Below, in pieces: positions 42,654-43,076 of a stretch of DNA of 64,000 bases. Under the pieces are notes generated by a model that did not search any database, was not told the DNA's origin, and was given only the letters and a program-made list of their open reading frames with translations. The stretch is taken from assembly GCF_054482595.1 (NCBI RefSeq), contig NZ_CM137008.1. One strand, 5' to 3'. The position numbers and the translations under genes are program-made. The first letter of the stretch is position 1. Each line of letters starts with the position of its first letter.

Positions 42654-43076
42654 TTATTTAGTACAAAAAGTGTACTTCTGATGATCTTTCCCTGGAAACA
42701 GGTGCTCAAAATACAGGCTTCTGCCGCCGTTATCACTGAGTATCAGTGTGTTATCGCGCAGCTGTAAGCGGATATCCGCAGGCATTTTCCAGCCGGGGCC
42801 GAGGCTCCCCACCGGCGCGGGCGTTTTTGTCCGATAACTGCTGTAGGTGCGGGAGAGAATGAACGGCAGCGGGGCGGGCAGGGCGATGTCGGTTTCACCG
42901 GGAAGGACCTTTGCACCCAGCAGCGGATTGACCGGATGGCCGGACGTCACCCCGCCGGGGCACACCGAACAGGCCACGCCGGTGGGGGCACCGATGCGCA
43001 CCCCGGCTGAACCCTGGACAATGCTACCGCCATACTGCGTCATGTCGCCCTGACGCGCCGCCGGTTTTCCGCTCAT
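42654..43076 (-). pseudogene. rhs 5' fragment encoding the N-terminal PAAR-like domain only (truncated Rhs)
   Basis: 140 aa MSGKPAARQGDMTQYGGSIVQGSAGVRIGAPTGVACSVCPGGVTSGHPVNPLLGAKVLPGETDIALPAPLPFILSRTYSSYRTKTPAPVGSLGPGWKMPADIRLQLRDNTLILSDNGGRSLYFEHLFPG... = canonical Rhs N-terminus, then diverges and stops. Confidence 0.8.

Follow-up and report, generated by a model that had tools for sequence, protein, structure and literature searches.

A described counterpart of the protein segment considered here is Pseudomonas aeruginosa Tse5 (PDB 8cp6). Its first 47 residues (M1-K47) make up an N-terminal fragment that has been called PAAR-like and is required for secretion (PMC10684867). Tse5 is cleaved at K47|P48, and the residues that follow the cut, 48-124, are the DUF6531 domain and constitute the N-terminal plug, which is the main anchor of the N-terminal fragment, the inner wall of the cage also helping to hold it (PMC10684867). 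An aspartyl autoprotease motif is described in the same paper. Stand-alone PAAR tips such as VCA0105 (4jiv) and c1882 (4jiw) are built differently, with three units within about 93 aa forming a cone.

The chromosomal site considered here has also been described. Jackson et al. (2009) catalogued yiiX/priA as rhs locus 11 and, across strains, scored rhs loci as present, pseudogene or relic (PMC2935791). As to the H-repeat, the insertion sequence involved, one genome paper states that its transposition has not been observed (PMC3032704).

We analysed a 64-kb stretch of E. coli chromosomal DNA running from btuB to pfkA (the window) and followed up one ORF in it that had been put forward, from the letters of the DNA, as an isolated 5' fragment of an rhs gene. 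In our reading the rhs gene at the rpmE-yiiX locus is dead and this ORF is its 5' stub, a by-product of pseudogenisation without a role of its own, and we put the probability of this at roughly 0.93. The importance of the finding is small: here again an Rhs toxin locus has decayed by way of IS activity, and the site was already known to vary among E. coli strains.

Structure of the open reading frame

The ORF listing places a 140-codon ORF, running from an ATG at 43076 to a stop codon, at 42654-43076 on the minus strand, and its translation is exactly the sequence MSGKPAARQGDMTQYGG...FPGKDHQKYTFCTK quoted in the original prediction. It lies between rpmE (43236-43448, minus strand) and yiiX (38533-39141, plus strand). 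The proposed homology to the start of E. coli rhs genes holds: the NCBIfam RHS_core profile (NF041261) matches ORF residues 1-131 at profile positions 1-131 of 1261 (E=1e-82), and Pfam DUF6531 (PF20148) matches with E=2.8e-18. Through residue 129 the product is that of IAI1, strain 4621 and K-12 RhsB except for G68A, a change private to the window's version of the stub, and, relative to strain 4621, I64L.

The divergence that had been placed after about 128 residues, followed by a stop, marks the point where rhs ends. Nucleotide comparison shows that rhs-derived DNA ends at 42695/42696 (ORF nucleotides 382/383) and that ISEc1 starts there, making the ORF a chimaera of rhs and the left end of ISEc1. 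Codons 1-127 are the start of rhs, codons 128-129 make up the junction and happen to preserve the Rhs residues P128-G129, and the final 11 codons and the stop belong to ISEc1. The tail, GKDHQKYTFCTK, with its stop is the left end of ISEc1 translated in the rhs frame, and a nearly identical tail is expected from any ISEc1 copy read in that frame. The stop lies about 40 nt inside the IS and the next rhs DNA comes 1291 bp on, so that, as anticipated, there is no in-frame fusion to an rhs body. This anatomy, with its junctions and its homology, is a direct observation.

The stub scores 278.6 bits against RHS_core, compared with a curated cut-off of 2000 bits for full-length proteins; the intact Rhs of strain 4621 scores 2609.9 bits and has 14 RHS_repeat stretches. 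No RHS_repeat match was found in the ORF, which thus does not have the YD-repeat cage that goes with membership of NF041261. The hyperconserved end of the core, DPxGx18DPxG, and the toxin tip are also absent from the stub's reading frame and are found only in a separate fragment at 40373-41403. As it has neither the YD-repeat cage nor a toxin, the stub cannot act as an Rhs effector.

The rhs 5' leader (43077-43235, minus strand) is intact. It lies directly downstream of rpmE and its terminator hairpin (about 43191-43226), and the leader and rpmE-proximal context are 99.6-100% identical to those of loci with an intact rhs gene. A promoter scan found no convincing sigma-70 site between the rpmE terminator and the stub's ATG, a result that carries little information. 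With its native start, leader and rpmE-proximal context intact, the stub may still be expressed. Ribosomes starting at the native ATG would translate the PAAR-like segment, then the plug, and then the end of the IS up to its stop.

N-terminal segment and plug

The description of the fragment as a PAAR domain only has to be revised. Residues 1-47 (42936-43076, minus strand) form a PAAR-like segment in which one PAAR unit, KPAARQGD...GSAGVRIG, precedes ACSVCPGG, and correspond to the N-terminal fragment of Tse5 (M1-K47). The unit falls below the curated thresholds. Pfam PAAR_motif (PF05488) scored 16.1 bits on the stub against a threshold of 27, covering only positions 51-69 of a 70-position profile, and NCBIfam T6SS_PAAR_dom (NF033420) scored 15.5 bits against 124, covering only positions 68-94 of 94. 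Of the three PAAR units just the third has a counterpart in the stub, at residues 2-29, and with the solved structures 4jiv and 4jiw the same residues align only to about 67-93 of these 93-aa proteins. They resemble that last unit, GKPAARxGD...GGxIxxGSxxVxIG, but where the stand-alone tips carry three units the stub has one unit in 47 aa.

A complete DUF6531 plug domain follows (residues 48-124; 42705-42935, minus strand), identified from the Pfam match and from alignment to the Tse5 shell. The Pfam match covers residues 46-123 of the ORF and the entire profile (1-74 of 74), with 66.5 bits against a gathering threshold of 24.1, which identifies the domain. Residues 48-133 align to the first residues (1-83) of the Tse5 shell chain, 8cp6_B, with E=1.3e-11. 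The plug makes up two thirds of the Rhs-derived part of the stub. What often goes by the name of "PAAR domain" in E. coli clade I Rhs proteins is a 47-residue segment with one PAAR unit, after which comes the N-terminal plug of the cage. An alignment of 25 diverse Rhs N-termini showed that this layout is clade-wide, with R8, D11, P48, V49, P51 and G54 invariant.

Over this region the layout is that of Tse5: both have a PAAR-like fragment of about 47 residues, P-V-N-P-x-L-G at residue 48 and a plug at 48-124, and H47|P48 of the stub is the position equivalent to the K47|P48 cleavage site. N-terminal cleavage, as in Tse5, is not known for E. coli Rhs. Tse5 also runs on into a 40-hairpin cage and a pore-forming toxin, whereas the stub ends just past the plug.

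As the stub retains both the PAAR-like fragment that Tse5 needs for secretion and the plug that does most to anchor it, and has an intact start codon and leader, we considered whether it is expressed as a free mini-protein that docks on the VgrG tip, either capping it without a toxin or competing with full-length Rhs effectors. We think this very unlikely and found nothing that supports it or any other free-standing function. The stub has one PAAR unit of the three and does not reach the curated PAAR thresholds, it has no cage, the inner wall of which also holds the N-terminal fragment in Tse5, and the residues of its tail are arbitrary, being read from the end of an IS. When 1.84 billion representative proteins were searched, no conserved family of stand-alone proteins made of the N-terminal segment plus plug was found; the short homologues formed a continuum of truncation lengths, and the two diverged examples that we examined were initial parts of rhs genes that have decayed. 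AlphaFold2 also modelled the stub with low confidence, with a mean pLDDT of 48.8 and almost all of residues 1-65 below 50, although the alignment behind it was shallow (25 sequences), which makes the poor model weak evidence. A more specific version of the idea, in which the stub is made from its intact leader, perhaps aided by read-through from rpmE, the ribosomal protein gene upstream, and its PAAR-like peptide is clamped by the plug as a toxin-less VgrG cap or decoy that tunes T6SS loading in a few lineages, seems to us less probable still.

ISEc1 and the remainder of the gene

The element that ends the ORF is ISEc1, the H-repeat, at 41404-42694 on the minus strand. We count it as 1291 bp, its left boundary being uncertain by 1 nt; 1291 bp is also the length given by ISfinder. 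It encodes DDE_Tnp_1 and DDE_Tnp_1_assoc (Pfam), which places it in the ISAs1 family, and it has 12-nt terminal inverted repeats, CAGGGAAAGAT and CAGGGCAAGAT, that are 92% complementary. Its ends (CAGGGAAAGAT...ATCTTGCCCTG) are the same here, in strain 4621 and downstream of K-12 rhsB. With the K-12 yhhI copy the element shares 97.8% identity; it has 29 mismatches to K-12 ISEc1 against 61 to the H-repeat of strain 4621 and shows no chimaeric pattern. The K-12 yhhI copy sits downstream of rhsB, whereas the window's copy lies inside the rhs core at a deletion and its transposase gene carries a nonsense codon, a W-to-stop change at about codon 20. Text matches to "ISEc1" in PMC10711316 proved to be ISEc12 and were discarded.

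Elements of the ISAs1 family end in CAGGG and usually produce target duplications of 8-10 bp. No target-site duplication was found at the ISEc1 flanks here, CCTGTTTC and GCTTCACG; the two flanks are unrelated to each other, and in rhs their positions are separated by 2.77 kb. The placement of ISEc1 was thus not a simple insertion. Both junctions between rhs and the IS fall exactly at the ends of the IS.

Contrary to the original prediction, the stub is not isolated. Directly beyond ISEc1 (41403-40048) lie the end of the core, the DPxG motif, the DUF4329 tip and dsORF-f3, and in IAI1 the rhs parts on the two sides are one gene. The 3' remainder of that gene (40373-41403, minus strand; 343 open codons) comprises the last 160 or so core residues (RHS_core profile 1104-1261) and the DUF4329 toxin tip, and carries DPIGx18DPLG, the autoprotease motif and C-terminal plug. 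It is followed by dsORF-f3 (40048-40371, minus strand), a putative immunity gene of 107 aa that is intact and was identified from its RefSeq product name and translation. Judged from position only, dsORF-f3 is likely to be the cognate immunity gene for the DUF4329 tip. It is also intact in the other carriers of the split gene, and frameshifted in IAI1, whose full-length rhs gene is itself frameshifted. On the yiiX side the rhs element is bordered by a defective IS1 (39286-39978, plus strand; insAB/insB frameshifted). The conservation of this IS1 in IAI1 and strain 4621 indicates that it is an old part of the locus.

IAI1 provides a simple ancestor. Its gene order is rpmE, a single rhs gene of 4184 nt with the window's tip, dsORF-f3, IS1 and yiiX. 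Window positions 36001-41403 correspond to 2827-8228 of the IAI1 locus and 42691-46000 to 10996-14305, and the IAI1 rhs gene bridges the gap of about 2.77 kb between the two matching blocks. This mapping shows that the window carries an rhs::ISEc1 arrangement with rhs nucleotides 383-3154, approximately, missing. The suggestion that the ORF is simply a remnant was correct: it is the 5' half of an rhs gene that an internal deletion associated with ISEc1 has split. In strain 4621 the same rpmE-yiiX site holds a full Rhs of 1409 aa, with other tips and a resident H-repeat after it, and a view based on that strain, with two deletions (4881 bp and 923 bp) around the resident H-repeat and the tip as an orphan, was dropped in favour of the simpler IAI1 ancestor.

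We infer the order and mechanism of the IS events. The ancestor would have had one continuous rhs gene between rpmE and yiiX, as in IAI1, and ISEc1 would then have come to replace the missing segment. The likely route is either that ISEc1 inserted and the DNA next to it was then deleted, or that two copies of ISEc1 recombined. The placement of ISEc1 in the rhs core at a deletion provides small and indirect evidence of past H-repeat mobility or of IS-IS recombination.

With ISEc1 counted as 1291 bp, the flanking rhs pieces are in frame (382 + 1031 nt = 471 codons), and precise loss of the element would yield a cage-less mini-Rhs with the N-plug, the C-plug and the DUF4329 tip. This is probably a 1-in-3 coincidence, and it hinges on the 1-nt ambiguity of the boundary.

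Distribution and annotation

The junction between the stub and ISEc1 was present in 24 of 5426 complete E. coli genomes; carrier strains include XH990, Santai and ETEC6335. An rhs start adjoins rpmE in 2170 genomes, mostly annotated as intact core proteins. The rarity of the split structure also speaks against a docking role for the stub. The junction between ISEc1 and the 3' piece was found as a single piece in the same 24 genomes; an initial count of 53 included 29 that arose artificially, when an rhsB piece and an ISEc1 piece lying about 560 bp from each other were joined. No intermediate form of the split locus was found in the junction search of the complete E. coli genomes.

Repeated rhs and IS sequence might have misled assemblers, as both rhs cores and ISEc1 occur in several copies, at a median of 5-6 places per genome. 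About 24 complete genomes that were sequenced independently, from a variety of hosts and countries, show the same structure with both of its junctions, however, and we regard an assembly artefact as wholly implausible.

The carriers fall into at least two sublineages, with 18-19 differences in 5 kb that are concentrated in the rhs parts. Between the sublineages the rhs pieces (40373-41403 and 42695-43076) differ by about 1% and ISEc1 by 0.15%. At the variant positions the stub has the bases of other rhs alleles, a pattern that suggests gene conversion by rhs paralogues once the gene had been split. The stub ORF is unbroken in both sublineages, and both share the transposase nonsense codon; RefSeq marks the transposase gene "internal stop" in three carriers.

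These differences bear on another reading, in which the split gene does not work through a protein but is retained as a recombination substrate for tip swaps or rearrangements, with dsORF-f3 perhaps still giving immunity. The arms for recombination are present, as 382 bp of 5' homology on one side and, on the other, the 3' end of the core with the toxin tip and the immunity gene, and the suggested gene conversion speaks for this reading. Tips are shared between loci according to Jackson et al. (PMC2935791), and dsORF-f3 is intact in the window and frameshifted in IAI1. But the same authors report that core recombination between loci is infrequent (PMC2935791), no recombination product was observed at the window's locus, and serving as a substrate is a consequence of homology rather than a selected function of the ORF. 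We consider this reading unlikely. The preferred reading remains that of a stub left by pseudogenisation.

The split rhs gene is already annotated as a pseudogene and lies at a catalogued variable rhs site, and the stub is an ordinary remnant. RefSeq annotates the stub as a partial pseudogene, [quoted passage not shown], and the other piece as "missing N-terminus", and the exact 140-aa sequence occurs on 198 contigs in public databases. Like the population frequency, this annotation is a direct observation. The window agrees with rhs locus 11 of Jackson et al. in its site and in its clade I core, and has dsORF-f3 and the bordering IS1 as in IAI1 and strain 4621; it differs from the intact form in that the gene is split, about 2.77 kb of YD-repeat cage DNA being replaced by ISEc1.

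From the product name "dsORF-f3" in RefSeq, we take this site to be that of Hill's RhsF. The "RhsF" of recent EHEC papers is a different, vgrG1-linked locus, z0705, and is not relevant here.

Type VI secretion context

No T6SS or vgrG genes were found in the 64-kb window, in agreement with the original prediction. Such genes do occur elsewhere in the genome of strain XH990, which is near-identical: the window is collinear with it over its whole length of 64 kb, and the mismatches add up to about three, one or two in each aligned locus. In XH990 a T6SS cluster with hcp-vgrG-rhs lies at aspV, within 3858000-3907999; its VgrG is WP_021556443.1, and the N-terminus of its vgrG-adjacent full-length Rhs is 74% identical to the stub over 133 aa. 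This match indicates that the N-terminal module of the stub is of the T6SS-linked type.

The presence of such a system in a near-identical strain speaks for a VgrG-docking stub, and the linked type of module, together with the intact start and leader and the unbroken ORF in both sublineages, counts against reading the stub as a remnant and nothing else. In the annotation of XH990, however, tssH (ClpV) has an internal stop and the VasL-domain gene is frameshifted, so the T6SS of this strain may be inactive, which weighs against docking. We infer from the evidence as a whole that the stub has no function of its own.

Other features of the window

Two hypothetical proteins of 228 and 238 aa are encoded between rraA and zapB (51664-52350 and 52383-53099, both plus strand). 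By eye they look paralogous and membrane-associated, and neither gave a Pfam match at E<0.01. In IAI1, zapB follows rraA directly. Between fabR and sthA, at about 3153-5678 on the minus strand, lie genes for a citrate-proton symporter and an M20 aminoacylase, which are presumably accessory relative to the K-12 map.
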